Origin: a bacterium
GTDB lineage: Bacteria; UBP6; UBA1177
Assembly (NCBI GenBank): GCA_017961325.1
Contig: JAGCXM010000028.1
Coordinates: 21,781-85,780 of the forward strand
Reading direction: 5' to 3'
Length of the DNA: 64,000 bases
A program made the position numbers and the translations under genes. Below are positions 10,953 to 49,077 of the stretch, piece by piece; the first letter of the stretch is position 1; each line of letters begins with the position of its first letter. The notes under the pieces are model-generated. The model saw only the letters and a list, made by a program, of their open reading frames with translations, was not told the DNA's origin and did not search any database.

Positions 10953-13481
10953 ATGGACGAATTGATACACGGCAAAATAAAGGATATCGCGATAGAGCAC
11001 TCCATGAAAACGGCGTTCATCGACTATGCGATGAGCGTCATCACCGACAGGTCGCTTCCCGATGTCAGAGACGGTCTGAAACCGGTTCACCGCAGAGTGC
11101 TCTTCGCAATGAAGGAACTCGGAAACACCTACAACGCGGCTTACAAAAAGTCTGCGAGGATCGTCGGCGACGTCATCGGTAAATACCATCCGCACGGCGA
11201 CCAGGCTGTCTACCAGACTTTGGTCAGAATGGCTCAGGATTTCTCGATGCGTTACACGCTCGTTGACGGTCAGGGCAACTTCGGCTCGGTCGACGGTGAC
11301 GGCGCGGCTGCAATGAGGTACACCGAGGCGAGAATGGCGAAGATCGCAGGCGAGATCATGGCCGACCTCGACAAGGACACCGTCAATATGCGCGACAACT
11401 ACGACGGCAGTCTGCAGGAACCGGAAGTAATGCCGACGAAAATCCCCGAACTTCTCGTCAACGGAACGAGCGGTATCGCAGTCGGTATGGCGAGCAACAT
11501 CCCGCCGCACAACATCACCGAAGCTGTAAACGCAACTATCCACCTTATCGACAACCCCGACGCCGACATTCCCGAGCTTATGGAATTCATCACGGGCCCC
11601 GACTTCCCGACCGGCGGCTCGATCCTCGGCAAAGCGGGCATCAGAGCAGCTTACGAAACGGGCAAAGGCATCATCAAGATCCGCTCGAAAGCTACTATCG
11701 AGCTCGGTCAGAACGGTGCACGTGACCGCATAATCATCCACGAAATTCCTTATCAGGTAAATAAGGCGAACATGATAATCCAGATCGCCGAACTCGTTAA
11801 GGAAAAGAAACTCGAAGGGATCCACGACATCCGCGACGAGTCGGGCAGACGCGAAAAGATCAGAGTCGTCATCGAACTCAAGAAGGACGCAGACCCGAAC
11901 ATCCTGCTCAACCAGCTCTTCAAAATGACGCAGCTTCAGGTTTCCTTCGGCATCAACATGCTCGCAATCTGCAACGGAATCCCGAAGACGATCAACCTCA
12001 AGGACGCGCTTCACTACTTCATCCTTCACAGAAAGGACGTCGTCACGAGAAGGACCCGTTACGAACTTGCCGAAGCGGAAAAACGCGCACACATCTTGGA
12101 AGGACTCAAGATCGCGATCGACAACATCGACGAAGTCGTTCACATCATCAGATCGTCCGCATCGACTGACGATGCAAGGATCAATTTGATGGACAGATTC
12201 GGCCTTTCGAAGCTTCAGGCGAACGCCATCCTCGATATGAAACTGAGCAGACTCACCGGTTTGGAAAGAGACAAAATCATTGCCGAACTCGAAGAGCTCT
12301 ACAAAAAGATCGAATGGTACAAGGAGATCCTTGCAAACGAGCACGTTCTTTTCGGCGTAATCAAGGACGAACTCAAGGAAATCAAGGAGAAATACGGCGA
12401 CGAGAGAAAGACCGACATCGTCAACTACGACGGCGACATCGACATTGAAGACCTCATTGCCGACGACGACATGGTCGTAACGCTCACGACTGAAAACTAC
12501 ATCAAACGCACTCCGCTTGACCTCTACCGCAAGCAGAAACGCGGCGGAAAGGGCATCAACGCGATAAATCCGAAGGAAAACGACTACGTCAAGAACATTT
12601 TCGTCGCAAGCAGCCATACTCTCCTTCTTCTCTTCACATCGTTCGGCAAAGTTTACTGGACAAAAGTCCATCAGCTTCCCGAAGCGACGAGAAACAGCCG
12701 CGGCAAACCGATAATCAACCTCGTAAACATTGAAAAGGACGAGAAAATCGCGGCAGTTCTTCCGATAAAGGATTTCGTTGAAGGCGAATTCATAATGATG
12801 GGAACCAGAAACGGAACCGTCAAGAAGACCGACATCATGGAATACAAGACCCAGAGAACGAACGGCAAGAAGGCGATCAAACTCAACGAAGGCGACGAGC
12901 TTATCGAAGTCAAGATCACGAAAGGAAACGACGATGTCGTTCTTGCAACGAAAAAAGGTCTCAGCATCCGTTTCAACGAAAACGACGTCAGACCGATGGG
13001 CCGTGTTGCGGCAGGTGTCCGCGGTATCAGAATCAACAGCGATGACGAAGTCGTCACGATGGACGTTATCGAAGAGGGAACGACGCTTCTTTCGATCACC
13101 GACAAAGGTATCGGAAAACGCACTCCGGTCGAAGATTACAGGCTTCAGTCGAGAGGCGGCAAAGGCATCATCACGATCAAGACTTCCGAAGAAAACGGAT
13201 ACGTCGTCGGCGTTCTCAAAGTCAGCCAGAACGACGAGGCTATGCTCATCACTTCAAACGGTCAGGCGATCAGAATTCCGGTCAGCGGCATCAGCGTGAT
13301 CGGCAGGAACACGAAGGGCGTCAGACTCTTCAAAGTCGAAAACGGCGAACTTGTCGTTTCCGTCACGAAGATCATCGATCCGGAAGACCTGCAGCCGGAA
13401 TCGGGCAATACCACCGGTGTTCTTGATTCCGGAAACGTCGCTGAACCGCAGTTCGACGAACCGGAAGAAAACGAAGAATAA
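10953..13481 (+). CDS. gyrA: DNA gyrase subunit A
   Basis: [25 protein letters not shown]...[10 protein letters not shown] active-site region; C-terminal beta-pinwheel repeats; 842 aa. Confidence 0.95.
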
Positions 13482-13497
13482 CCTCACCCCTTTTATT

Positions 13498-13527
13498 CCC
13501 CTCTCCAGCGTGGAGAGGGGATTTTCT
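13498..13527 (+). terminator. Rho-independent terminator after gyrA: 10-bp perfect stem cccctctcca/tggagagggg, 3-nt loop, then ATTTTCT
   Basis: Perfect GC-rich hairpin plus T-tract 17 nt after the gyrA stop. A second imperfect, related hairpin lies at 13573-13597. Confidence 0.7.
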
Positions 13528-13615
13528 GAAATTTATTTCTCCATGTTTTTTCTGTCTCTTGCCTGAATTTTTCTCCCTTCGCCACAATGGAGAAGGGTGG
13601 GAATGAAGGCTTGTT

Positions 13616-14788
13616 TTAATGCCGGAATTTTTTCAACAAAGGTTTTAAAACGAGTTCCTTAACGAGAAGAATCACAAAAACGACGCTTGACGCTATTTCC
13701 CACCATGATGCACCTTCTCCGTGGTGATGCGCGCTCATTGCATCCGGCAGATATGCCGTAAACCACTCTCTCGGAAGGGCGTAATCGACGACAAAACCGA
13801 AAGCGACGGCTCCGGCAACTATCGAAATCAGGTAAATCAGCAGAGTCTTTCTGCCCATTGCCTTGCCGACGACGAGAATCGAAGCGGCATTCACGGCAGG
13901 TCCCGCCATCAGCATGACGAGCGCGGCTCCCGGCGTCATCCCCTTTATCATCAACGCAACGGCAATCGGAATAGAACCTGTTGCGCAGATATACATCGGA
14001 ACTGCGACGACAAGTACGGCAAGCATATTTATGACAGGGATGTTTGCAAACTGCGTGAAAAAGGTGTCCGGAACGAAAACAGTGATCAGACCTGCCGCGA
14101 CAAGGCCGAAAACGAGCCGTTTGCCGACATCGCCTATCATGTTGGAAAAACCGTATTCGAAAACGCGGCGGATTCTGCTTTTTTCCTTATTCCCGCGGCC
14201 GTGTTCATGCTCATGACCGCAGCAGTCGTGGTCATTCCCGCCATGATGATGGCAGCAGCACTCATCATCGTCGCAGTCGTGATCATGACAGCAGCATTCA
14301 TCACTGTCTGGTTCAAGTATTTGATTTTTTTCATCTTTTGTCTGAAATGCATTGGTCAGGAAACCGCCGAAAATAGCCGTTACGAATGCTGCGAGCGGAC
14401 GGATAACGGCAAAAGGCAGACCCATGAGAGAATATGTCGCGATTATCGAATCGACGCCCGTCTGAGGAGTCGAAATCAGAAACGAAACGGTCGCACCTTT
14501 GGAAGCTCCTTCCTTCTGCAGTGAAACGGCCGTCGGAATGACACCGCACGAGCAGAGGGGAAGAGGAACGCCGAAAAGAGCCGACAGAATCACCGATTTC
14601 GCGTTGTTCCCGCCGAGATATTTGTGGTAGAAATCCTTCGGAACATAGACGTGAAGAAGTCCTGCGACAAAAAATCCGAACAGAAGATAAGGTGACATCT
14701 GATGAAGAATGTAGGTAAATGCCGAAAAATCCATTTTTCTCTCCAAGTATTTAAGAATATTAAATAAATATTCAAATCTAAAGAACAT
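13616..14788 (-). CDS. Permease of the DUF318/ArsP-like family with a Cys/His-rich (CCCHDHDCDDDECCCHHHGGNDHDCCGHEHEHG) loop, likely a metal (Cu/Zn-type) transporter
   Basis: N-terminal LFGVPLPLCSCGVIPTAVSL...GASKGATVSFLISTPQTGVDSI, typical of this permease family; two-repeat TM topology. Confidence 0.65.
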   Translation of the reverse strand: MFFRFEYLFNILKYLERKMDFSAFTYILHQMSPYLLFGFFVAGLLHVYVPKDFYHKYLGGNNAKSVILSALFGVPLPLCSCGVIPTAVSLQKEGASKGATVSFLISTPQTGVDSIIATYSLMGLPFAVIRPLAAFVTAIFGGFLTNAFQTKDEKNQILEPDSDECCCHDHDCDDDECCCHHHGGNDHDCCGHEHEHGRGNKEKSRIRRVFEYGFSNMIGDVGKRLVFGLVAAGLITVFVPDTFFTQFANIPVINMLAVLVVAVPMYICATGSIPIAVALMIKGMTPGAALVMLMAGPAVNAASILVVGKAMGRKTLLIYLISIVAGAVAFGFVVDYALPREWFTAYLPDAMSAHHHGEGASWWEIASSVVFVILLVKELVLKPLLKKFRH

Positions 14789-18530: not shown

Positions 18531-20846
18531 TTATTTTACATCATTTGCATCAACAATAACAAGACCAGGAACGCCGTAAGTTACGTCATAAACACCGCTT
18601 ATTTTGCTGACTTTGTCACCTGCTTTGAGAGAGAGATTGATTGAGAAAGTCTTGGGTTTGATTACCACGCCGTTTGTGAAAGTAACATTTTTATTTCCAT
18701 CAACTGATTCAACTTCTAAATTTGTGTCGGTCAGTTCAATGAAAGTTCCCTTGTCTTTTTCTGCAAGGTCTGCATAAGCTTTTTTTACAGCTGCAGGAAC
18801 CGTTCCAGTTCCGGTCTTTGTGATTGAACCTACGTTTTTCGCGTTTTTGATTTCCCACTGTTTGCCGTAGAAATCAATTTGACCTTCGATTGTTACTTTG
18901 TCACCTTTTGCAGGAGCTTTGTCTGATGTGACTCTGTAAATGTAAAGTCCGCTGTAATCTCCTGTTGTTCCGTCGGAAACATAGAATGTGTAACCGGTTG
19001 TGTCGTCATCAAAAGTCTGTGAAACGACAGGAGTGATAACTATCGCGTTTTCGATTTTAACAAGATCTTCTTTTGCTTTCGTTCCGCTCTGAATTTCTTT
19101 GATTGTTGCGGGTTCGCAAGTGTCAGTATCGTCATCATTCGTGTCGCCGGTATCAGTGTCATTGTCGTTGCCGGTGTCGCCGGTGTCAGTGTTGTCGTCG
19201 TTGGTTGTGTCGCCGGTGTCTCCGGTGTCTTCAACCAGGTCTTCTTCTGTTGTCGGCGCAAGTTCGTAAGCGTCGTAGGTATACATCAAAACGCCTTGAA
19301 TGGATTCGAATTTTTTGCCGGCCGTTCTTTTCCCGGAGTAGTAGTACAGATTCTTGTAGATTGCGAGATCGTCGGTAACGGTGAATGCGCCGTGACAGAT
19401 GTTTTCTTCAACGATTGCAACATCGTTTACCTTTACAAGAACGCCTTCGTATTCTTTTGCCTTTTCGCCGTGCTGTTTGCTTGAGGTCCAGCCTGCTTTG
19501 CAGGAATCCGTAACTTTTTCAGGATCGGTTATGAAAGGAGTTGCAATGTCTTTTGATGCAACTTCAGCTGGTTCGGGAAGAGCGACGTTTTCTCCAAGTT
19601 TTGTGATATTGCCTTCCTGTGTTTCAATTTGCGGAGCGCCGTAGTATTTTTTGTAAGTTCCAGTTATTTCGAGCTTGTCCCCGATTTTGCAAAAATCAAC
19701 GGCAGCGTTTTTGACAAAAACATAAATTCCGGAATAAGGTTCTGCTTTAGGAATGATTTCTGAAACATAGAATGCTTTGATTCCGGTGTTTTCATGGGTC
19801 TGGCTGTCCTGGATATATTCAATACCCGTAACAACACATTCACTGATTTTAACCTCTTTGCCCTCCTTATCCTCGCTTTTGATTTCCCGAATCTTGCTTT
19901 CTTCGTAAATGATGGGGGCTTCAACCAGGTCTTCTTCTGTTGTCGGCGCAAGTTCGTAAGCGTCGTAGGTATACATCAAAACGCCTTGAATGGATTCGAA
20001 TTTTTTGCCGGTCGTTCTTTTCCCGGAGTAGTAGTACAGATTCTTGTAGATTGCGAGATCGTCGGTAACGGTGAATGCACCGTGACAGATGTTTTCTTCA
20101 ACGATTGCAACATTATTTACTTTTACAAGAACGCCTTCGTATTCTTTTGCCTTTTCGCCGTGCTGTTTGCTTGAAGTCCAGCCTGCTTTGCAGGAATCCG
20201 TAACTTTTTCAGGATCGGTTATGAAAGGAGTTGCAATGTCTTTTGCTGCAACTTCAATAGGTTCGGGAAGAGCGACGCTTTCTTCAAGTTTTTTGATATT
20301 GTCTTCTGTTGTTTCAATTTGCGGACCGCCGTAGTATTTTTTATAAGTTCCAGTTATTTCGAGCTTGTTGCCGATTTTGCAAAAATCAACGGCAGCGTTT
20401 TTGACGAAAACATAAATTCCTGAATAAGGCTTTGCTTCAGGAATGATTTCGGAAACATAGAATGCTTTGATTCCGGTGTTTTCATGGGTCTGGCTGTCCT
20501 GAATATATTCAATACCCGTAACAACACATTCACTGATTTTAACCTCTGAACCTTCGTCATCCTTGATTTTGATTATTTGAATTTCACCGCTGTAGGTTTC
20601 ATCGCAGTCATCATCACAGTCAGTAACGGTATCACCTTCAGGTCTACCGCAGTCATCATCATCACAGTCAGTATCGGTATCACCTTCAGGTCTACCGCAG
20701 TCATCATCACAGTCATTGACAGTGTCGCCGGTGTCGTCGGTGTCGCCACACTTATCGCCTTTGCATGTTGTGCCGCATGCAATCGTAAACAGGCACAAAG
20801 CCAAAACGATCAGTGGAACCAGAAACTTTTTCATTTTTTTCTCCAT
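18531..20846 (-). CDS. Lipoprotein of unknown function built from three copies of a ~230-aa module; two copies are ~95% identical at the DNA level
   Basis: Signal peptide plus lipobox (LFTIAC); Asp/Thr/Cys-rich linkers; 690-bp tandem duplication 19231-19920 / 19921-20610. Confidence 0.6.
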   Translation of the reverse strand: MEKKMKKFLVPLIVLALCLFTIACGTTCKGDKCGDTDDTGDTVNDCDDDCGRPEGDTDTDCDDDDCGRPEGDTVTDCDDDCDETYSGEIQIIKIKDDEGSEVKISECVVTGIEYIQDSQTHENTGIKAFYVSEIIPEAKPYSGIYVFVKNAAVDFCKIGNKLEITGTYKKYYGGPQIETTEDNIKKLEESVALPEPIEVAAKDIATPFITDPEKVTDSCKAGWTSSKQHGEKAKEYEGVLVKVNNVAIVEENICHGAFTVTDDLAIYKNLYYYSGKRTTGKKFESIQGVLMYTYDAYELAPTTEEDLVEAPIIYEESKIREIKSEDKEGKEVKISECVVTGIEYIQDSQTHENTGIKAFYVSEIIPKAEPYSGIYVFVKNAAVDFCKIGDKLEITGTYKKYYGAPQIETQEGNITKLGENVALPEPAEVASKDIATPFITDPEKVTDSCKAGWTSSKQHGEKAKEYEGVLVKVNDVAIVEENICHGAFTVTDDLAIYKNLYYYSGKRTAGKKFESIQGVLMYTYDAYELAPTTEEDLVEDTGDTGDTTNDDNTDTGDTGNDNDTDTGDTNDDDTDTCEPATIKEIQSGTKAKEDLVKIENAIVITPVVSQTFDDDTTGYTFYVSDGTTGDYSGLYIYRVTSDKAPAKGDKVTIEGQIDFYGKQWEIKNAKNVGSITKTGTGTVPAAVKKAYADLAEKDKGTFIELTDTNLEVESVDGNKNVTFTNGVVIKPKTFSINLSLKAGDKVSKISGVYDVTYGVPGLVIVDANDVK
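19231..20610. repeat. Two tandem ~690-bp units, ~95% identical, inside CDS 18531..20846
   Basis: Direct comparison of the 19231... and 19921... segments shows only scattered substitutions until the copies diverge near 19865/20555. Confidence 0.85.
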
Positions 20847-27139: not shown

Positions 27140-27215
27140 ATAATTGATTTCTGATATTTTCGCAGAGACGTTTTAGGAAACGTCTCTGCGTTAACATTGT
27201 GATTTTATTGGATTT

Positions 27216-40513: not shown

Positions 40514-43500
40514 TTATTCAACGCAAATTACAATATTATCGCTGGTGTTTGTTTTTGTAGCAGTCGAGAGGTCGCCTCTTAGGAAATCGAAGGCATAAGC
40601 CTTTGTAGCATCGCTGTTTAAAGTCGTTGAAGTCCAGGCTTTTCCTGTAAATTCAGGAATCAGAGATTTGCCGGTTGTCGGATCGATGAGGTAAATAAGT
40701 TCGTTGGCGGTCGGCAGTCTCATCTTGTTGACACCGTTGATATCGACTCCCTTGCATGCAGCAAGTGCCTGCTGCCATGAAACGGTGTGTGTCAGATCTT
40801 CAAAATACCAGAACGAGAAAGCCGTTTCGCCGAAAATTATTACAAGTACATTCGGGTAATCCAAGACATTGGGTTTATTGTTTCCGCAGGTTAAGCATGA
40901 AGTGTTTTTATTGTCTGAAATGACGCATTTTACCTGAGCCGTGCCGGAGTATCCCTGAGTAAGAGTTCCGTCGGAAGTTGCGAAAATACCTCCCTCTGCT
41001 GTCCAGTAATTGCCGTTCGTATTTGTAAATCCTGAATAAATATGGCTGGCTGTAGTAAAATCGGCGATTTGCGGCAGTTCAAACGCGCTCGGCAGTCTCC
41101 AGCCTGTTTGTCCGCCTAAGTTGAGATTTTTACAGTAATTTTGTGCTTCTTCAAAGTTGCATGAAGATTCATTTTCGCAGTTTTCGTAGGAAGCCGGTGT
41201 TGCTTTCTGCCAAACGGAATTGGAGAATGTTTCAGTGATAACGTCGTTTCCGACATCATAATTTTGTGTCTCATAGGAAAAGTTATTACCCTGACCGTAG
41301 AAATCGCCGCTCTCGTCTTGACAAGGTATGATCGAATTATTGTTATAGCAAAGCGTCTGTTTCGTATCAAGGAACGGACTGGTAAATGAAGTATTATTGC
41401 TGCAATCCGTAAAAATCGGCATGCATTCGTCGTTGCATGATCTGATCGGGCTGTATCCTGTAAACTGGGAGATCATAAAACAGTATAAAGTGAAATCAAT
41501 GGATCCGTTCTGTTCGCATACTTCATCTTTTCCTACAACTCCGTCGCCGCAGTAAGAAATGCCGTCGCACGTTTCGTTGCAATGACCGTGATATCCGTTG
41601 TCTTTACCGCCTTCATCGCAGATTTCAGGTGAATAACCTTCTGCAAACTCAGCAACTTCGCAACAGTTTTGGATCGTATTCCCATCGCAGCGTGGAATGG
41701 AACCGCATTCTGTTTCGCTTGCTTTCTGTATTTTTCCGTCGCCGCAGTGTTCGCCAAGACCCGAGCAGTCGGTTTTGCATTTTCCGTATTTACCGTTGTC
41801 TTCGCCGTTGTCACATGCTTCTGCACCTTCAATAATTCCGTTACCGCATAGAGGAGTCTGGCCGTTGCATATTTCGTTGCAGAAGCCTGGAGTATTGTTG
41901 TCTGCTCCGTCATCGCATGATTCTTCCGGCTGCTGTATTCCGTCACCGCAGTAACCACCTTTGCCTCTTCCCAAACAGTCGGAATCGCAACTGCCCGGAG
42001 CAGACATCTGATATGTTCCGTTGACGTCTTCTCCTTCGTCACATACTTCTCCGTGGCTGAAATCAATGTTGCCGTCCCCGCATTTCCATGTTATCGTTTC
42101 TTTGCATTTTTCATCGCATTTGCCGAATTGACCGTTTTCTGCACCGTCGTCGCAGTTTTCGAAAGCTCCCGGAACTACCTGACAGTTCGTGTAATTGTCA
42201 CAGTTTTCGCGCTGGATGATTCCGTCGCCGCATCTTTCCGTTCTGTAAGCTGAGCATTCGTCGTTGCAGTGGCCGTATGTTCCGTTGTATAAGACGTTGT
42301 CGTCGCACTCTTCGTCAGCATATAAAGTAACGATGCAGTTGTCATAGCCTGTGCAGTCGGTGCGCTGGATGATTCCGTCATTGCAGTAGCCGGTATAGCC
42401 GTTACATGTTTCATTGCAATAGTTTCCGTATCTGCCGTTGTCAAAACCGTCATCGCATGATTCTCCAGGCTGCTGTATTCCGTCGCCGCAGTGAGAGGTG
42501 CCGCTGCAAGTAGAGTTGCAGTGGTCGTATTGGCCGTTATACTGGCCTTCGTCGCATGTTTCGTTTGCTCCTTCAGCTACGACGCAGTTTTCACCGTAAC
42601 CGGTGCAGTCTTCGCGCTGGATTGTTCCGTCGTTGCATGTTCCGCCTTCGGCAAAACCGTCACAGTTCGTGTTGCAGTAGCCGGGAGCTTCTGCGGAATA
42701 CTTGCCGTTGTTTGTGCCGCTGTCGCACATTTCATTTGCACCTTCGACCACTACGCAGTTGTCATAACCGGTGCAGTCGGCGCGCTGAAGGATTCCGTCA
42801 CCGCAGTAAGCGCCTTCATTGTGGCCAGAGCAGGTATTGTTGCATTTTTCATAGCCGCCGTTGTCACTTCCGTCGTCACATGCTTCGTTTGCACCTTCAG
42901 TGACGACGCAGTTTTCACCGTAACCGTCGCAGTTTTCACGCTGAAGAATTCCGTCACCGCATGTAAGTTGTGCCGAGCAGTCGCTGTTGCAGTGATTGTA
43001 TTCGCTGTTGTATGAACCTTCGTCGCAAGCTTCGTTTGTACCTGCAACTTCAACGCAGTTTTCGTCGTAACCGGTGCAGTCTTCGCGCTGAATGATTCCG
43101 TCACCGCATTTCGGCGAATTGCCGGAGCATGTCGAATCGCAGAAACCGTACTTGCCGTTGTTGCCACCGTCGTCGCACTCTTCGCCGTCCTGTTTGGTTC
43201 CGTCACCGCAGTAGCCGGCTTCTCCGCGGCCGTTGCAGCCGTAGTTGCAGAATCCTGGAGCGTTTTGTGAATACTGACCGTTGTTTCCGCCGTCGTCGCA
43301 TGTTTCGTTCGCCCCCTCGACTACAACGCAGTTCGCGTAACCCGTGCAGTCGGCACGCTGGATTATTCCGTCGTTGCAGTGAGGAGCGGAGCCGCTGCAG
43401 CTGGAATTGCAGTATCCGCCGTATTTACCGTTGTTTGCGCCGTCGTCGCATGTTTCGTTCGCTCCTTCGACGACAACGCAGTTAGCATAACCCGTGCAGT

Positions 43501-46087
43501 CTTCGCGCTGGATTATTCCGTCGTTGCAGTATGATTTTATTCCGTCTTCCAAAGTACAGTCGGAAGTGCAGATTTTGCAGTTCGTTTGACCGTAAGGACA
43601 GTAGGGCTGGGTGTTTCCGCCGTTGTCGCATTCTTCTTCCGGCTGCTTCGTTTCGTCGCCGCAGTAACCGCCTTCGCCTTTGCCACGGCAGTCGCCGTTG
43701 CAGAAACCGGGAGCATCGTGTTTGTAATGTCCGTTGTTTGCGCCGTCGTCACAATCTTCAATGTTTTCCATGGTGATTCCGTCGCCACATTCGCCGAGTT
43801 TCGTCTTGCAGTTGTCCGAACAGTAAGCGCCGATACCTTGTTTGTTTCCGACATTCGGTTCGGCCTTGTCGCAAATTTCGAAATCCTGTTTGGTTCCGTC
43901 TCCGCAGGATCCGAACGATTCCTGACAGTTTGCGGAACAGTAGTCGCCGTCTGCCGTGTTTCCGTCGTCACAGACTTCGTTTGCATTTTTAACTACGACA
44001 CAGTCCGTGAAGCCGGTGCAGTCTTCGCGCTGAAGGATTCCGTCGCCGCAGTAAGCGACGTTTGAACCTGCCGTTTTTTCGCAGCCGGAAGTGCAGACTT
44101 CGCAGCTTGTTTCGTTGTAAGGACAGTATTCGTTGCCGTTGTTTGCTCCTTCATCGCAGCTTTCGTTGGCCCCTTCTGCCGTTGTGCAGTCGCCGAATCC
44201 TGAGCAGTTCGCACGCTGAAGCTTTCCGTCACCGCAGAAACCGCCTTCGCCTCTGCCTTTGCAGTTGCTGTCGCAGTATGCCGCTTCTGCAGATGTAGCG
44301 TATGGAGAATATTTTCCGTTGTTCTGGCGGTCGTCGCATTTTTCGCCGTTTGCTTCGTCAACACCGCCGTTGCCGCAGTATGAAGTGATTCCTGCCGTTT
44401 TTTTGCACTCGGTCGTGCAGACTTCGCAGGACGTTTCCCCATAAGCGCATTTCGTGCTGCCGTTCGGGTTCGTACCGGTTTCTCCGTTGTCGCATTCCTC
44501 GTTGCCGTTCAGTATTTTATCGCCGCAGCGTCCTTCGATTTTGCATTTATCCGAGCAGTATGGAGTGTTCGGGTCATCCGTCTTGTTCGGATCGCATTCT
44601 TCGTTCTGCTGCTTTATTCCGTCACCGCAGTAGCCTGTAATTTTTTTGCAGTCGTCGGAACAGTAGAAAGGTCCGATTCCTTCGCCGGTCGTTGCCTTGT
44701 CGCATTCTTCGTTCGGCTGCTTTATTCCGTCACCGCAGAATCTGATTTTTCCCTCTACTTTTTTACAGTCCAAAGTACAGCGTTCGCATGGAACATATGA
44801 GCCGTATTCGCAGTCCAGATTTCCGTTCCGTATGGTACCTGTTTGGCCGTTGTCGCACTGCTCAATGCCTTCCTGAATTATTCCGTCGCCGCACTCGCCG
44901 AGCAGCGTCTGGCAGTTGTCTACGCAGTATGCGCCCGTTCCTTCGCCGTTGCCGACTCCCGGTTTTGCACTGTCGCATACTTCGAGACCTTCCTGAATTA
45001 TTCCGTCTCCGCATGCTCCGAACGATGTCTTGCAGTCCGAAGAGCAGTAGTCGCCGTCTTCGTTGTTTCCGTCATCACATGCTTCGTTTGCTCCGGCAAA
45101 GACAACGCAGTCCGAGCCGTAACCGTTGCAGTTTGACCTGTGAAGAATTCCGTCTCCGCAGTCCGGAGCGTAGTCGTCGCATTTATTATTGCATTTTCCG
45201 TATTTTCCGTTGTCTGCGCCGTCGTCGCATACTTCCATATCCAGCTGGGTGATTCCGTCACCGCAGGCGTGTTCTTTCTTCTTGCAGTCTTCACTGCAGT
45301 AAGTTCCGATTCCTTCGTGTTTTCCGACACTCGGATCGGCGTTGTCGCAGACTTCAAACGACTGTTTCGTTCCGTCGCCGCATTCCCCGAGTTTTGTCTG
45401 GCAGTCTTCAGAACAGTAGGGGTTGTTTCTGGTGTCGCACTGTTCGTTCCACTGTTCTATACCGTCTCCGCAGTAGCCTGTAATTCCCTGGCAGTCGTTT
45501 CTGCAGTAGTCGCCGTCCGTACGGTTTCCGTCATCGCAGAGTTCACCGCTGTCTGCGGTTCCGTCGCCGCATGTCGCAAAAGTGCAGTTCGTACGGCAGG
45601 TCTGCCCGAGTATGCCTGGTTCGTTGCTGTTGTCGAGAGCATTGTCGCACTCTTCGCCCTCGTCTTTTATGCCGTTGCCGCATTCGGGAACATACTGATC
45701 CTCATCCGGTTCGGAGTCTGCATCGTCTTTCGGTCCGTCTCCGTCGTTCGTTCCGGAATCGGTGCTGTCCGGAATATCCGTGTCGGTACCGGTATCAGTA
45801 TCATTTTTGCCGGAATCGGTATCGTCCGCCGGTTCCTCCCCGTCCGGTATCGTGTCGGAATCTTCGGTCAGGTCTTCGTCGGATACCGGTTTGCTGCACA
45901 CTTTATTGATGCAGACAAGGCCGCTTTTACAGTCTTTGTCTTTTCTGCATTTATCACCGATGTCGCCTGATGAAGTGTTGTCTCCTCCATCGCCGCCGGA
46001 ATACTGGTCATAGAAATCCTTTTTGTCACCGCATGCGGAAAAGACAAAAATGAAAGAGAGACAGAGCAAAATTTTGAAAAACTTCAT
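40514..46087 (-). CDS. Giant (1857 aa) lipoprotein composed of ~30 Myxococcus-type cysteine-rich repeats (CGDGI.Q..E.CD.G..NG) with two C-terminal Fib_succ_major/DUF1566 domains
   Basis: Lipobox VFSACG; periodic ~45-55-aa Cys-rich units; C-terminal WRLPSAFELPQIADF and MRLPTANELIYLIDP. The many internal antisense ORFs are taken as spurious. Confidence 0.75.
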   Translation of the reverse strand: MKFFKILLCLSFIFVFSACGDKKDFYDQYSGGDGGDNTSSGDIGDKCRKDKDCKSGLVCINKVCSKPVSDEDLTEDSDTIPDGEEPADDTDSGKNDTDTGTDTDIPDSTDSGTNDGDGPKDDADSEPDEDQYVPECGNGIKDEGEECDNALDNSNEPGILGQTCRTNCTFATCGDGTADSGELCDDGNRTDGDYCRNDCQGITGYCGDGIEQWNEQCDTRNNPYCSEDCQTKLGECGDGTKQSFEVCDNADPSVGKHEGIGTYCSEDCKKKEHACGDGITQLDMEVCDDGADNGKYGKCNNKCDDYAPDCGDGILHRSNCNGYGSDCVVFAGANEACDDGNNEDGDYCSSDCKTSFGACGDGIIQEGLEVCDSAKPGVGNGEGTGAYCVDNCQTLLGECGDGIIQEGIEQCDNGQTGTIRNGNLDCEYGSYVPCERCTLDCKKVEGKIRFCGDGIKQPNEECDKATTGEGIGPFYCSDDCKKITGYCGDGIKQQNEECDPNKTDDPNTPYCSDKCKIEGRCGDKILNGNEECDNGETGTNPNGSTKCAYGETSCEVCTTECKKTAGITSYCGNGGVDEANGEKCDDRQNNGKYSPYATSAEAAYCDSNCKGRGEGGFCGDGKLQRANCSGFGDCTTAEGANESCDEGANNGNEYCPYNETSCEVCTSGCEKTAGSNVAYCGDGILQREDCTGFTDCVVVKNANEVCDDGNTADGDYCSANCQESFGSCGDGTKQDFEICDKAEPNVGNKQGIGAYCSDNCKTKLGECGDGITMENIEDCDDGANNGHYKHDAPGFCNGDCRGKGEGGYCGDETKQPEEECDNGGNTQPYCPYGQTNCKICTSDCTLEDGIKSYCNDGIIQREDCTGYANCVVVEGANETCDDGANNGKYGGYCNSSCSGSAPHCNDGIIQRADCTGYANCVVVEGANETCDDGGNNGQYSQNAPGFCNYGCNGRGEAGYCGDGTKQDGEECDDGGNNGKYGFCDSTCSGNSPKCGDGIIQREDCTGYDENCVEVAGTNEACDEGSYNSEYNHCNSDCSAQLTCGDGILQRENCDGYGENCVVTEGANEACDDGSDNGGYEKCNNTCSGHNEGAYCGDGILQRADCTGYDNCVVVEGANEMCDSGTNNGKYSAEAPGYCNTNCDGFAEGGTCNDGTIQREDCTGYGENCVVAEGANETCDEGQYNGQYDHCNSTCSGTSHCGDGIQQPGESCDDGFDNGRYGNYCNETCNGYTGYCNDGIIQRTDCTGYDNCIVTLYADEECDDNVLYNGTYGHCNDECSAYRTERCGDGIIQRENCDNYTNCQVVPGAFENCDDGAENGQFGKCDEKCKETITWKCGDGNIDFSHGEVCDEGEDVNGTYQMSAPGSCDSDCLGRGKGGYCGDGIQQPEESCDDGADNNTPGFCNEICNGQTPLCGNGIIEGAEACDNGEDNGKYGKCKTDCSGLGEHCGDGKIQKASETECGSIPRCDGNTIQNCCEVAEFAEGYSPEICDEGGKDNGYHGHCNETCDGISYCGDGVVGKDEVCEQNGSIDFTLYCFMISQFTGYSPIRSCNDECMPIFTDCSNNTSFTSPFLDTKQTLCYNNNSIIPCQDESGDFYGQGNNFSYETQNYDVGNDVITETFSNSVWQKATPASYENCENESSCNFEEAQNYCKNLNLGGQTGWRLPSAFELPQIADFTTASHIYSGFTNTNGNYWTAEGGIFATSDGTLTQGYSGTAQVKCVISDNKNTSCLTCGNNKPNVLDYPNVLVIIFGETAFSFWYFEDLTHTVSWQQALAACKGVDINGVNKMRLPTANELIYLIDPTTGKSLIPEFTGKAWTSTTLNSDATKAYAFDFLRGDLSTATKTNTSDNIVICVE

Positions 46088-46287: not shown

Positions 46288-49077
46288 ATGTTTGGTCGTT
46301 TTTTATTTGTTGCAATCTTATTTTTGTTTCCGTTCGGGATTTTCAGCGGAGATATAACTTTTTCCGATTTTTACCACTTTTCTTCGCGTTCATGGAATGC
46401 CGTTTCTGGGCTTCCCCACAACAATGTCTCATCTTTTTACCGTGATGAAAAAGGTCTGCTCTGGGTAGGAACGGTCGAAGGGCTAGTCAGAATCGATTCT
46501 AAATCGTCCAAAATTTTCAATACAAGCACGACTCGTGCTATTTTGAGCAATAAAATCAACGACTTGTCAGGATGCTACGGCAAAATTTTCGTTGCGACTC
46601 CGATGGGGGTTTCAGAAATCAGTGATTCAGGCTTGAAGATTTCTAAGCTCGCCGAAACGCACGCCATTTTTGATATCGAAACACTCACCGACTGTACTCT
46701 CTTTGCGACGAACGGCAAAGAAATAATGATGATAAAATCAAATAAAATCAGTAAGTTGAGCGAAATAACGGCATTCCCTGAAAGTCCCGTTTCGGTTCTT
46801 TTTTCAGACGGTTTCGCACTTTATGCCGGTTTTGAAAACGGCGAAATCAGAATTTTCGGCGAGGACGGTTTCTCAGGAAACCTCTGCGGCGCAAATTCGT
46901 CGCCGGTTACTGCCGGAAGAGCAAAAGATGGAAGAATTTTTGCCGGAAACGCCGACGGAACCGTTTTTGAACTGAAAAACGGAAAGTGCTTGAAAATTGC
47001 AAGAACCGAATCGCACAAGGCGGTAACTTCACTCGATTTTCAGGAAAAAACAGTTGCTTTTGTCTCCGACGGGGCACTTTTCTTTGCCGAAGGCGGTGCT
47101 CTGAAGCCGTGCGGCAGTTTCTGCGCAGACAACGGTTCCATTTCAAAAGTTATGCTTGACGACGATTTCCTGTGGCTTTCCGGAAGCCGCGGCGTAACTT
47201 TGTTTTATCCTGGAAAATTCATAACTTTGGGACGTGAATCGGGGCTTTTTTCCGAAAAGGTCTATGCCGTTCTCGAAGATGATTCCGGCAGAATCTGGGC
47301 CGGCACACGCGGCGGCGGACTTTTTGTCTACGAAAACGGAAAATTCAGATACCTGAAGGACAGAAAGGGTGATATCGGGCGTTTGGTAGGAGGATTGTTT
47401 CAGAACGACGACGGCAGCATACTAGTCGGAACGACTTCCGGAGTGATTTCGTTTTTGCCGGAAAAGCCCAGTGTTTTCAAGAAGATGAAAGTTTCTCGCA
47501 ATGGAAGTATGAATGCCGTCAGTGTTATTTTCCGTGACAGAAAATCGCGTCTCTGGGCAGGCGGCAGCGGCGGTGCTATTTATCTTGATACCAAAGACGG
47601 CTGGCATCTTCTCCGTAAATTCGGCGACGAATCCGATTTGGTTTCGGCAATCGCTCAGGATAGTCGCGGAAACCTTTGGTTCGCCGCCTCGAAGGGTTTG
47701 TGGCAGCTTGACAGAAATGATGAATTTCATGAGATAAATCAAGGTGTTGACGGAAATATGCCTGTGAGTCTCTTTGTCGATGAAAACGATGTCGTTTTCG
47801 TCGGTTCGATGCACCGCGGCCTCACTTTGATTTTTCCCGATCTTAAATCCGCACAGCTTGATTCACGGAAAGGGCTCTGCAGCGACACGATTCTGGGAAT
47901 GACGGCAGATGAAAGCGGAAATCTCTGGTTTTCAAGCACAAACGGCATTTTTTCCCTTTCAAAACAAGAGGTTGTCGAAGCGGCAAAAAGCGAGAACGGT
48001 TCGCTTTCATGCACTCCTTTCGATTCTACTGACGGAATCCGCCGGCCTGAATCGACGGGAGGAGTCCAGCCTTCTGTTTTGAAGCGCAGAAACGGCGATC
48101 TGTGGTTCCCGACCCTTGAAGGAATCGCGGTTCTCAGACAAAACGGGAGAAAACCTGTTAAATTTGATTCGCTGGTACCTGAAGAAAATCCAACTATTAT
48201 TGTGAAAAGTGAAGAAAAATCAAATTTTTCCGGAATTTTCGTGATTTTGGCGGTTTTTGCTTCGGTAATTTTGGTTTTTGCGGTGAAAAAAGCTTTCAGA
48301 CCTCGCCTCCGGACCCTCTCAAGTGTGGGAGACCTCACCCCTGAACCACTCTCCGGTGTGGCGAGGGGAGAAGACCTCACCCCTGAATCCATCTCTGAAG
48401 CGGTTAGGGGAGAAAAAAATGAGGTCGCCGAGCCTGTGGAACAGAGTCAAGATAATTCTGAAAATATTGAACCAGAAACTGAATTTCTTGAAATTATTGA
48501 AGAAATTGATGATGAACCTCACCCCCGGCCCCTCTCCAGTGTGGCGAGGGGAGACGAGCTTGTTTCCGAACCTGTTTCTGAAGCGGCGAAGGATGAAGAC
48601 CTTATTTCTGAGCCTGTTTCTGAAACGGCAAGGGGAGATGATGAAGAACTTTTCGATCCTGCGGCCGACGAGGTTGAAGAAAAGCGGAAATATGAAGGCT
48701 ATCAGCTGGATGAAGAGATCGCAGCAGCTTATGCCGCCGAGGCGAGAGAGTTGATGGAAAAAGAAAAACTCTATAGAAATCCATATCTTACGATGCCGGA
48801 GGTTGCAAAGAAACTGAAGCTTTCGACAAATACGCTTTCTCAGGTTCTGAACGGCTACTGCGGTCAGACTTTTTACAATTTCATAAATACATACCGGCTT
48901 GAGGAAGTTATTGCGATGATGCATGATCCGAAATGTGACGGCAAAAGCATTCTGAAACTTTCGATCGAAGCCGGCTTCAATACGAAATCGACTTTCAACA
49001 ACATTTTCAAAAAGCGTACGGGACTCACTCCGGCGGAATTCCGCAGAAACATCGGAAATCAAGAAAAAAAGCAATAA
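46288..49077 (+). CDS. One-component transmembrane regulator: two-component-regulator beta-propeller (Reg_prop/Y_Y_Y-like) sensor domain, one TM helix, an acidic repeat-containing linker, and a C-terminal AraC-family HTH
   Basis: N-terminal propeller repeats (LWVGT..GL, LWFAASKGL, LWFSSTNGI); TM IFVILAVFASVILVFAV; C-terminal AraC HTH (...LSIEAGFNTKSTFNNIFKKRTGLTPAEFRR). Confidence 0.7.
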   Translation: MFGRFLFVAILFLFPFGIFSGDITFSDFYHFSSRSWNAVSGLPHNNVSSFYRDEKGLLWVGTVEGLVRIDSKSSKIFNTSTTRAILSNKINDLSGCYGKIFVATPMGVSEISDSGLKISKLAETHAIFDIETLTDCTLFATNGKEIMMIKSNKISKLSEITAFPESPVSVLFSDGFALYAGFENGEIRIFGEDGFSGNLCGANSSPVTAGRAKDGRIFAGNADGTVFELKNGKCLKIARTESHKAVTSLDFQEKTVAFVSDGALFFAEGGALKPCGSFCADNGSISKVMLDDDFLWLSGSRGVTLFYPGKFITLGRESGLFSEKVYAVLEDDSGRIWAGTRGGGLFVYENGKFRYLKDRKGDIGRLVGGLFQNDDGSILVGTTSGVISFLPEKPSVFKKMKVSRNGSMNAVSVIFRDRKSRLWAGGSGGAIYLDTKDGWHLLRKFGDESDLVSAIAQDSRGNLWFAASKGLWQLDRNDEFHEINQGVDGNMPVSLFVDENDVVFVGSMHRGLTLIFPDLKSAQLDSRKGLCSDTILGMTADESGNLWFSSTNGIFSLSKQEVVEAAKSENGSLSCTPFDSTDGIRRPESTGGVQPSVLKRRNGDLWFPTLEGIAVLRQNGRKPVKFDSLVPEENPTIIVKSEEKSNFSGIFVILAVFASVILVFAVKKAFRPRLRTLSSVGDLTPEPLSGVARGEDLTPESISEAVRGEKNEVAEPVEQSQDNSENIEPETEFLEIIEEIDDEPHPRPLSSVARGDELVSEPVSEAAKDEDLISEPVSETARGDDEELFDPAADEVEEKRKYEGYQLDEEIAAAYAAEARELMEKEKLYRNPYLTMPEVAKKLKLSTNTLSQVLNGYCGQTFYNFINTYRLEEVIAMMHDPKCDGKSILKLSIEAGFNTKSTFNNIFKKRTGLTPAEFRRNIGNQEKKQ
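48301..48660 (+). repeat. Degenerate ~39-42-bp tandem units inside the regulator CDS, encoding (S/T)EP(L/V)S.(V/A)ARG(E/D)(D/E)L. Best units at 48333-48370, 48375-48412 and 48517-48553.
   Basis: Units of the form cctcacccc-N-ctctcc-N-gtgtggcgaggggaga, closely related to the gyrA terminator hairpin at 13485-13527. Confidence 0.7.

Follow-up and report, generated by a model that had tools for sequence, protein, structure and literature searches.

What is a G/C-rich hairpin element doing both behind a gyrase gene and inside the coding sequence of a membrane-bound transcription regulator? The question is raised by a 64,000-nucleotide (nt) stretch of DNA from an uncultured bacterium (assembly GCA_017961325.1, contig JAGCXM010000028.1, positions 21,781 to 85,780; this whole stretch is hereafter the window), in which a sequence-only reading had noticed that the palindrome following gyrA recurs as in-frame peptide repeats within an AraC-type regulator gene. 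Our analysis confirmed that this likeness is real, and it supports the core of the earlier interpretation, namely that dispersed palindromic repeats entered a coding sequence and vary in copy number there. We found that the element belongs to the family known in Escherichia coli as BoxC, PIT, or TM_ECO; that the peptide repeats originate at the DNA level and are read in all three frames; that single units are gained or lost within clusters of proteins sharing 90% identity; and that the linker harboring them is predicted to be disordered.

The regulator gene (46288-49077, + strand) encodes a 929-amino-acid (aa) protein composed of a signal peptide, a Reg_prop beta-propeller, one transmembrane helix, a linker, and an AraC-type helix-turn-helix (HTH) domain (Pfam Reg_prop, HTH_18, and HTH_AraC). 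More specifically, the transmembrane helix (approximately aa 647-666; 48226-48285, +) is formed by the hydrophobic run FSGIFVILAVFASVILVFAV, modeled by AlphaFold2 as helix 649-664; the cytoplasmic juxtamembrane linker spans 134 residues (aa 667-800; 48286-48687, +); and the AraC-type output domain (48805-49047, +; HTH_18 at aa 840-920) follows in frame, downstream of this repeat-bearing linker. In the AlphaFold2 model, which was built on an alignment of 42 homologues, the propeller and the HTH region (809-928) are confidently predicted, residues 663-805 have pLDDT values of 24-33 and lack secondary structure, and no column of the alignment is invariant between F626 and K801. Variation among about 50 orthologues (55-80% identity, 829-932 aa) is concentrated in this hypervariable linker, and all of the listed 829-932-aa proteins keep their HTH domains despite it. 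The G+C content of the linker is 53-62% versus 45-50% for the rest of the gene in eight relatives, and 50% versus 46% in the window gene. Because metagenome assemblies supplied all of the data and repeats are a known cause of misassembly, the arrays could in principle be artefacts of assembly or binning, such as chimeric joins at repeats. We give that explanation practically no chance and rejected it: the identical 929-aa protein was found on six contigs (the two places shown come from different samples), and orthologues from ENA, NCBI, JGI, and Logan all have intact reading frames and conserved synteny.

The gyrA copy (13482-13521) and the linker units (48301-48642) have the blocks CCTCACCCC, CCCCTCTCC, and GG(A/C)GAGGGG in common. 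The best coding unit, CCTCACCCC-CGG-CCCCTCTCCAGTGTGGCGAGGGGA (48517-48552), matches the gyrA copy at 31 of 33 alignable positions (head, 9/9; hairpin, 22/24), the spacers (7 nt in the gyrA copy, 3 nt in the coding unit) being unrelated. Within the window, CCTCACCCC was observed 4 times versus 0.16 expected, and the hairpin pattern 6 times versus 0.00 expected. Searching the 64 kb by nhmmer with a profile made from related units returned 13482-13521 (+), 13574-13601 (-), 48301-48328, 48333-48369, 48375-48411 (weak), and 48517-48552; neither this profile nor regular-expression searches revealed further copies in the window beyond the gyrA and regulator loci. The sequence-only reading thus held up in outline and required adjustment in detail. 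Its perfect hairpin behind gyrA exists, but the element occupies 13482-13521 rather than 13485-13527; the similarity goes far beyond chance, but the estimate of about 38 of 43 shared nt was too generous; the related inverted copy placed near 13573-13597 is real, if degenerate, at 13574-13597 on the 3' side of an ArsP_1 gene; and the additional units placed at 48333-48412 are our units 2 and 3, the latter a weak nhmmer match. RNA folding, which it had proposed as a check, set the gyrA copy apart from shuffled sequences (z = -3.75) but not the coding units, which folded no better than shuffles (z 0 to -1.2); structured RNA in the coding units was rejected on these grounds.

In the linker, the peptide repeat corresponds to a 42-nt (14-aa) unit present in two blocks of three (48301-48416 and 48517-48642; direct-repeat family D18), all on the + strand. 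Unit 1 (48301-48332; nhmmer E = 0.006), whose position corresponds to that of the first unit of L003 and L129, is truncated to CCTCGCCTC-CGGA-CCCTCTCAAGTGTGGGAGA and yields the peptide PRLRTLSSVGD. Unit 2 (48333-48374; E = 3e-10) is well preserved (CCTCACCCC-TGAACCA-CTCTCCGGTGTGGCGAGGGGAGAAGA, peptide LTPEPLSGVARGED), and unit 3 (48375-48416; LTPESISEAVRGEK) combines an intact head with a decayed hairpin. Unit 4 (48517-48558; E = 1e-11), the best coding copy, reads CCTCACCCC-CGG-CCCCTCTCCAGTGTGGCGAGGGGAGACGAG and gives the peptide PHPRPLSSVARGDE, its head lying in a frame different from that of units 2 and 3. Units 5 and 6 (48559-48642; LVSEPVSEAAKDED and LISEPVSETARGDD), recognized from family D18 and the codon view, are strongly decayed 42-nt copies, 67-72% identical to unit 2, that have changed mostly from C to T. 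Intact units (2 and 4) and decayed ones (1, 3, 5, and 6) are therefore mixed within one gene.

BoxC/PIT is among the oldest unexplained repeats of E. coli; it has been so since the 1990s, and we know of no established function, origin, or means of spread. The BoxC element was rediscovered as PIT and later renamed TM_ECO (Holder et al. 2015, NAR, PMC4666352, citing the original accounts of BoxC and PIT), with the published pattern CCCTCNCCC N3-6 GGGNGAGGG N3 GGGNGAGGG. According to the same study, E. coli MG1655 contains 23 copies that are "always located intergenically" (five loci being inverted pairs), the loci are unusually variable between E. coli strains, and the species surveyed as carriers are proteobacteria; a TM_ECO single strand forms a triplex in vitro, as judged by circular dichroism and nuclear magnetic resonance, and no stable triplex was seen in vivo (PMC4666352). 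The element described here is a G/C-rich sequence of about 35 nt with the three blocks CCTCACCCC, CCCCTCTCC, and GGAGAGGGG, the opposite strand of which corresponds to the published triplex motif. Judged by its sequence, it is BoxC/PIT/TM_ECO, a G/C-rich "intrastrand triplex motif" (TM), in a variant whose register is shifted by one base.

Several features underlie this assignment. Read on the reverse strand, the copies in the window have the form CCCCTC(T/G)CC – loop – GGAGAGGGG – loop – GGGGTGAGG, so that all three blocks are present, both in the gyrA copy (TCCCCTCTCCA-CGC-TGGAGAGGGGA-ATAAAA-GGGGTGAGG) and in unit 4 (CCCCTCGCC-ACACT-GGAGAGGGG-CCG-GGGGTGAGG). E. coli TM type B matches the gyrA copy at 26/34 positions, and type B-mm matches unit 4 at 29/36, the CCG loop and the stem mismatch being shared; the literal published expression misses the copies by the one-base register shift and, for the gyrA copy, also by the longer second loop. 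As regards mirror symmetry, which we assessed as sequence compatibility, Watson-Crick pairs and allowed purine-motif triads (G·G-C, A·A-T, T·A-T) are possible at 9/9 and 9/9 positions, respectively, in the gyrA copy, at 8/9 and 8/9 in unit 4, and at 7/9 and 8/9 in unit 2. Likewise, the linker hairpins carry the "mm" change (T to G in the C-rich arm, CCCTCGCC): 19 of 20 scored linker hairpins contain GGCGAGGGG or a similar sequence retaining that C (i.e., CCCCTCGCC on the other strand), as do 13 of 130 copies from other bacteria, and type A-mm accounts for 13 of the 23 E. coli copies (PMC4666352). The gyrA pair is intergenic, whereas six units lie within the regulator open reading frame (ORF) and in-frame copies exist elsewhere, so the property of being always intergenic fails here; the family assignment stands nonetheless, because that location describes the E. 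coli copies and is not part of the structural definition. As for copy number and distribution, the 64 kb covered of this organism hold two loci, and the gyrA copy lacks a counterpart in relatives.

A scan of one genome per species with the pattern CCTCACCCC N2-8 CCTCTCC NNN GTGG N GAGGGG retrieved at least 119 stretches, often several per metagenome-assembled genome (MAG) and with flanks that are unconserved between phyla; among the matches listed are Burkholderiales, Cyclobacteriaceae, Anaerolineae, Dehalococcoidia, Chloroflexota, Planctomycetota, Ignavibacteria, Myxococcota, Bacteroidota, rumen Bacteroidales, and others. Only 3 matches turned up among 2.9 million viral contigs, and carriage by phages was rejected on that count. 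Rfam at its gathering thresholds recognized four tRNAs and nothing else in the whole window, and a permissive scan of 13430-13640 gave chance-level matches only; the element is thus not represented by any RNA family described there. In one Bacteroidales MAG (SRR12081302_bin.27), the TM sits within a longer, lineage-specific conserved repeat (…ttctaccgagatt…cctaa-TM-gagcgttctacccggg…) found on at least seven contigs (L034, L052, L077, L080, L097, L112, and L125).

How the linker copies are translated was determined by inspecting the window gene and eight orthologues codon by codon, with frame counts taken from the seven of these nine genes that carry the element; the remaining two (L126 and L127) contain other hairpin repeats. 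The same DNA element is translated in 7/9 genes as LTPDPSPEWRGE, PHPDPLQSGEGE, TSPQPSPEWRGG, or LTPDHLSSVARGE (including the PLSSVARG reading), and frames 2, 0, and 1 are used by 15, 9, and 6 heads and by 7, 7, and 6 hairpins, respectively. In every linker copy, the C-rich strand is the sense strand. Units recur with tandem periods of 38, 42, 75, and 78 nt, accompanied by mosaics of partial units; together, these periods and spliced partial units are the signature of slippage or unequal exchange that is blind to codon phase. The window gene alone, with its fairly regular (S/T)EP(L/V)S.(V/A)ARG(E/D) periodicity, might suggest a 14-residue protein motif selected for binding or phosphorylation, with the likeness to the gyrA copy being coincidental. 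Three-frame translation of the same DNA into unrelated peptides led us to reject a protein-level repeat, and the absence of conserved linker columns, the abundance of the DNA motif outside genes in many phyla, and a chance expectation of about 0 for the DNA match leave that idea with next to no probability.

Turnover is visible between orthologues. In a tree of the conserved domains, element-bearing and element-free linkers interleave among sisters (P0004/P0005, P0024/P0031, and P0017/P0018). Within clusters of 90% protein identity, P0148 has an additional KDLTPDPSPVWRGE relative to P0020, and P0160 lacks DLTPDPSPVWRGEE relative to P0033; in other such clusters, linkers span 76-152 residues through other repeats. 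Between genes with only 41-59% identity at four-fold degenerate sites, the units nevertheless agree at 92-100% of positions (e.g., 35/35 between unit 2 of L004 and unit 2 of L128, and 97% between window unit 4 and unit 2 of L006). Because the units are read in different frames, selection on the peptide cannot explain this identity. As far as sequence comparison can tell, the units are either young, i.e., renewed, or constrained as DNA or RNA, the repeat being kept or renewed at the DNA level and not at the protein level; renewal is favored over constraint because decayed units are present. Moreover, the units look tolerated rather than recruited, since element-free orthologues have an equally acidic and unconserved linker.

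These comparisons also settle what the sequence-only reading had proposed about the family. A dispersed palindromic family inside a coding sequence is borne out by the three-frame reading in orthologues and by wide occurrence outside genes, and the expected unit-number variation was found as single-unit differences inside the 90%-identity clusters. The label "REP/MITE-like" was apt insofar as the family is dispersed and palindromic, but instead of a lineage-specific REP or MITE it is BoxC/PIT/TM_ECO of many phyla. Likewise, the linker is predicted to be disordered and its copy number changes, but its exaptation as an acidic spacer finds no support, the linkers of element-free orthologues being equally acidic; and the suggested search for further copies succeeded across phyla, with many copies outside genes, but yielded only two loci in the window.

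The same linker is filled by other G/C-rich hairpin repeats in TM-free orthologues (L126 12026-12178 and L127 12020-12260), one being a 66-nt triple repeat with GCTCCCC-TACCTCA-GGGGAGC (peptide SQPAPLPQGSLEEV) and another a 93-nt repeat giving DPSAFGSSPDAGAPE; the linker thus attracts several unrelated kinds of repeat.

A role of the units as nucleic acid would offer a different account of their conservation, either as hairpin- or triplex-forming DNA that renders the linker hypermutable and contingency-like, tuning its length and thereby signaling, or as a purine-rich, Shine-Dalgarno-like RNA that pauses translation just after the membrane helix has emerged. We consider this unlikely, while noting that it would accommodate unit identity that persists, regardless of frame, between genes saturated at synonymous sites, the accumulation of at least three unrelated kinds of G/C-rich hairpin repeat in the linker across the clade, the variation in unit number inside the 90%-identity clusters, and the hypervariability of TM_ECO loci among E. 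coli strains (PMC4666352). Arguing against it, P0014, P0016, and P0047 have no such repeats and an intact gene; units of the window gene decay and fold as shuffled sequences do; changes never switch the frame off, unlike in classical contingency loci; and a stable triplex was not seen in vivo in E. coli (PMC4666352).

We therefore favor, as the likely explanation, that a selfish or at any rate self-renewing repeat undergoes birth-and-death turnover in a permissive disordered linker; both the mechanism and the lack of a specific function are what we infer. Under this scheme, the spacer separating the membrane helix from the AraC domain in a one-component sensor-regulator of an uncultured gut/rumen lineage would be a permissive site for the element. 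Units could be read there in any frame because the spacer is disordered and unconstrained, the C-rich strand is almost free of stops, and the HTH domain is kept in frame. New or renewed units would arise by duplication or slippage between units and probably also by copying from other genomic copies, while old units would decay toward the AT-rich background and whole units would be deleted; the sole visible constraint would be a total linker length that keeps the HTH domain in frame, and the outcome a hypervariable linker rich in proline, serine, and acidic residues. The gyrA copy would then be a recent intergenic copy whose perfect hairpin happens to precede a T tract.

Several points weigh against this turnover scheme. 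Relatives' DNA totaling about 250 kb (around nine orthologous regulator loci and three gyrA loci) contained no copies outside the linker, and the window adds only the gyrA pair, so that the supply of new copies within these genomes stays hypothetical. No mobilizing enzyme was found in the window or in the relatives' loci, where tblastn for DUF559, the gene family discussed below, was negative (RAYT was not searched for). To our knowledge, movement of BoxC/PIT has never been demonstrated. Near-perfect unit conservation could instead result from purifying selection acting on the linker at the DNA or RNA level. According to Holder et al. (PMC4666352), PIT showed no promoter or terminator activity in E. 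coli, the terminator result being cited from Maher's work. Finally, the single orientation of all linker copies fits local duplication from one ancestral insertion better than it fits repeated independent insertions. A strict form of that alternative, in which one ancient insertion into the linker was followed solely by local tandem duplication, slippage, and decay, with neither outside input nor mobility, would also account for the first unit directly following the stop-transfer residues in many orthologues (KRPRPxPLS and KRPHPRPLS), for tandem and higher-order repeats within genes (a 75-nt period in L128 and a 78-nt period in L005), and for flanks without copies in the loci fetched. It is nonetheless very unlikely in our estimation: neutral descent cannot hold 35-nt units 97-100% identical at 41-59% four-fold-site identity, so that concerted evolution and selection would additionally be required, and the gyrA pair as well as in-frame copies in unrelated genes of other bacteria indicate that new sites do gain copies.

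The gyrA locus provides the intergenic counterpart. gyrA itself (10953-13481, +; 842 aa, Pfam DNA_topoisoIV and DNA_gyraseA_C) is followed, one base past its stop codon, by the sequence CCTCACCCC-TTTTATT-CCCCTCTCCAGCGTGGAGAGGGGA-TTTTCTG (13482-13528). This comprises an intact BoxC/TM-type element (13482-13521, +), i.e., the head CCTCACCCC at 13482-13490, the spacer TTTTATT, and the hairpin TCCCCTCTCCA-GCG-TGGAGAGGGGA at 13497-13521, and the T tract TTTTCTG (13522-13528, +) immediately 3' of the hairpin, which a scan flagged as a terminator-like site. The hairpin has a perfect 11-bp stem, a 3-nt loop, and a T-rich tail, matching a terminator-like consensus, and its RNA fold amounts to -21.1 kcal/mol. 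A stable G/C-rich hairpin followed by a U tract at a gene's 3' end is what defines an intrinsic terminator, and the perfect hairpin and T tract lead us to infer that the gyrA copy probably serves as the gyrA terminator. Caution is warranted because PIT elements were negative for terminator activity in E. coli. A T-rich tail accompanies 3 of 130 scored copies from other bacteria, which is why we regard the T tract as a local feature outside the element; the terminator character would accordingly reflect a local combination of a perfect-stem copy and an adjacent T tract.

Opposite the gyrA copy lies a degenerate inverted copy with a decayed head, CCCACCCTTCTCCATTGTGGCGAAGGGAGA (13574-13612, -; a pattern match with 2 mismatches; nhmmer 13574-13601, E = 0.0011), whose RNA fold is -12.8 kcal/mol (z = -1.6). 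The two form a pair 52 nt apart with heads outward, the inverted copy being on the 3' side of an ArsP_1 permease gene (13616-14788, -; assigned by Pfam) convergent to gyrA. The element was not found downstream of gyrA in three relatives (GyrA identity of 96, 82, and 77%), in which gene order changes directly after gyrA, even at 96% GyrA identity. A second palindromic family, GCAGAGACGTTT-N-AAACGTCTCTGC, is found between convergent genes in the window (27163-27188), replaces the gyrA terminator in the 96%-identity relative (L130 12560-12595), and occurs in frame beside a TM unit in a GT2 gene of rumen MAG RUG12558 (L088 4448-4469).

Is translation of the element peculiar to this regulator? Elsewhere we accepted coding copies only where the element has Pfam domains to either side of it in one and the same frame, open-frame length being unreliable in GC-rich genomes. 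In-frame elements were found between TIR_2 and FGE-sulfatase (L104 2252-3787), between DHH and DHHA1 of RecJ (L108 2723-4948), within DUF4147 of a DUF4147–MOFRL protein (L081 4465-6678), in a Polysacc_synt flippase (L072 720-2000), and after the first strand of a GT2 glycosyltransferase, splitting the profile after position 8 (L088 3681-4568). In addition, a Cyclobacteriaceae MAG (L050 1698-5861; GC 41%) carries a stop-free, in-frame TM–DUF559–TM cassette inside a 1388-codon type IIG restriction-modification gene, in the order DUF7149–DUF7814–[cassette]–MmeI_Mtase/Eco57I–TaqI_C. The statement "always intergenic", made for E. coli MG1655, thus fails in these other genomes, and the peculiarity of the regulator is the density of its array and its persistence across a clade.

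The cassette draws attention to a possible parent. In three Bacteroidota stretches, a DUF559 ORF is flanked by the element on either side (L034 473-1125, L049 2400-3223, and L050 3266-3717), and scanning metagenome contigs with an alignment of these three ORFs gave 80 loci (L137-L216) at 43-65% identity; as the seeds were picked for adjacency to the element, the association applies to that subfamily alone. Of the 80 loci, 63 have the element no more than 150 nt from the DUF559 gene, and 31 have it on both sides; at distances of ≤150, 151-500, and >500 nt, there are 4.56, 0.33, and 0.07 copies per kb, respectively. Outward-facing heads prevail, as in the gyrA pair: of 107 copies, 38 are upstream in + and 43 downstream in - orientation. 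One subgroup is a discrete unit of 665 bp, bounded by 18-bp terminal inverted repeats (ATAGCCGTCAACTTAAGA / TCTTAAGTTGACGGCTAT) and containing a DUF559 ORF as well as sub-terminal TM-like motifs; it occurs at L165 1276-1940, L166 431-1095, L170 1276-1940, and L175 1253-1917, at least 96% identical and with unrelated flanks; in L170 it sits within a flanking palindrome (AATGAACTCACCCCC ... GGGGGTGAGTTCATT). These sequence features suggest a small mobile element. E. coli K-12 has a BoxC copy (L133 2206-2240; NC_000913.3 ~1351205-1351239) 167 nt downstream of the DUF559 gene ycjD, next to fabI, in the orientation of the usual downstream copy of DUF559 loci, which is suggestive but a single case. 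Taken together, the arrangement points to DUF559 as a candidate, and only a candidate, for moving solo elements. We tentatively raise the possibility that BoxC/PIT/TM may comprise sub-terminal repeats and solo relics of multi-phylum small mobile units that encode a DUF559 (Vsr-like PD-(D/E)XK) endonuclease and permit in-frame read-through; the gyrA pair and the linker array would then be footprints, and coding linkers one habitat. Our literature search, which did not cover subscription journals, found no earlier link of BoxC/PIT to coding regions or to DUF559.

The element family itself is known; new here are its in-frame, three-frame, and hypervariable occupation of a regulator linker and the DUF559 lead. 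These findings matter because of the following: (i) a BoxC/PIT element can live inside genes and be translated in any frame; (ii) a signaling protein has a fast-evolving disordered linker across a whole clade of uncultured gut/rumen bacteria, and the DNA-level source of this protein variation is identified; (iii) peptides of the type "PSPxWRGE / PLQxGEG / PLSxxERG" should be annotated with caution, as repeat read-through; (iv) the clade is a natural system for measuring the instability of these motifs; and (v) the DUF559 association provides, as far as our literature search showed, the first concrete candidate enzyme for mobility of the element.

As for the genomic setting, close relatives of both GyrA and the regulator come only from gut or rumen-type metagenome assemblies, the best GyrA match labeled to phylum or class being 58% identical. 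The regulator is flanked by giant Lcl_C-domain genes and by an operon encoding pilin-like (N_methyl) proteins, an arrangement kept in all relatives fetched; neighboring genes of the relatives show faint Fib_succ_major matches and Lcl_C domains. Upstream of the regulator, window positions 41500-45900 (- strand) hold dense, diverged coding repeats (15 x 59 nt, 7 x 109 nt, and others) that belong to the giant Lcl_C-type gene and are translated into a cysteine/aspartate-rich sequence. Elsewhere, a 300-nt direct repeat (19224-19523 and 19914-20213) is 97% identical, its copies being 690 nt apart.

How does this system compare with repeats already described? Contingency loci likewise have a repeat array within a gene, with unit number differing between close strains, whereas the units here are complex and 38-42 nt long, and their variation alters linker length and composition with the frame kept, there being no on/off switch; a contingency locus was ruled out, as the listed 829-932-aa orthologues and the checked full-length cluster members keep the frame into the HTH domain. 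With respect to MITEs, the solo units carry no terminal repeats apart from their hairpin, and target-site duplications are not obvious, whereas the 665-bp DUF559-encoding unit described above does have terminal inverted repeats. REP/REPIN–RAYT systems are similar in being short, G/C-rich extragenic palindromes, often in inverted pairs and often at gene 3' ends; in contrast to REPs, which are lineage-specific and tied to a RAYT gene, the 35-nt sequence is common to many phyla. REP/REPIN membership was ruled out by this multi-phylum sequence, and the sole associated gene found was DUF559 (RAYT, as stated above, not being part of the search). Rickettsia palindromic elements (RPEs), as summarized in a review of MITEs (PMC10969869), are small palindromic repeats in frame within protein genes, and they share with the present units an in-frame palindrome read through as an extra peptide at positions compatible with protein function (PMC10969869). 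RPEs, however, are ~100-150 bp long, are confined to Rickettsia, and encode one conserved peptide in one frame spread over many genes, whereas the present element is ~35-42 nt long, spans many phyla, is translated in all three frames, and forms an unstable array in one linker; unit length, frame use, and phyla thus exclude RPE membership, and only the in-frame read-through is common to both. With intrinsic terminators, the gyrA copy shares a G/C-rich perfect hairpin followed by a T tract directly behind the stop codon, differing in that its hairpin belongs to a dispersed repeat family mostly without T tracts (127/130).

The closest counterpart is BoxC/PIT/TM_ECO itself. Relative to the E. coli copies, the block here is C4TCTC2 versus the published C3TCNC3, the second loop has 3-7 nt versus 3, the pair has its heads outward versus inward, and most copies are translated in frame versus always intergenic; furthermore, the published survey lists proteobacteria, and our scan extends the same sequence to many other phyla. 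What the two have in common is the structure CCCTC(T/G)CC – loop – GGAGAGGG – loop (CCG or TT-type) – GGGTGAGG with the same stem-mismatch variant, together with occurrence in inverted pairs, hypervariable host loci, and, apparently, multiple copies with a patchy distribution among related genomes.

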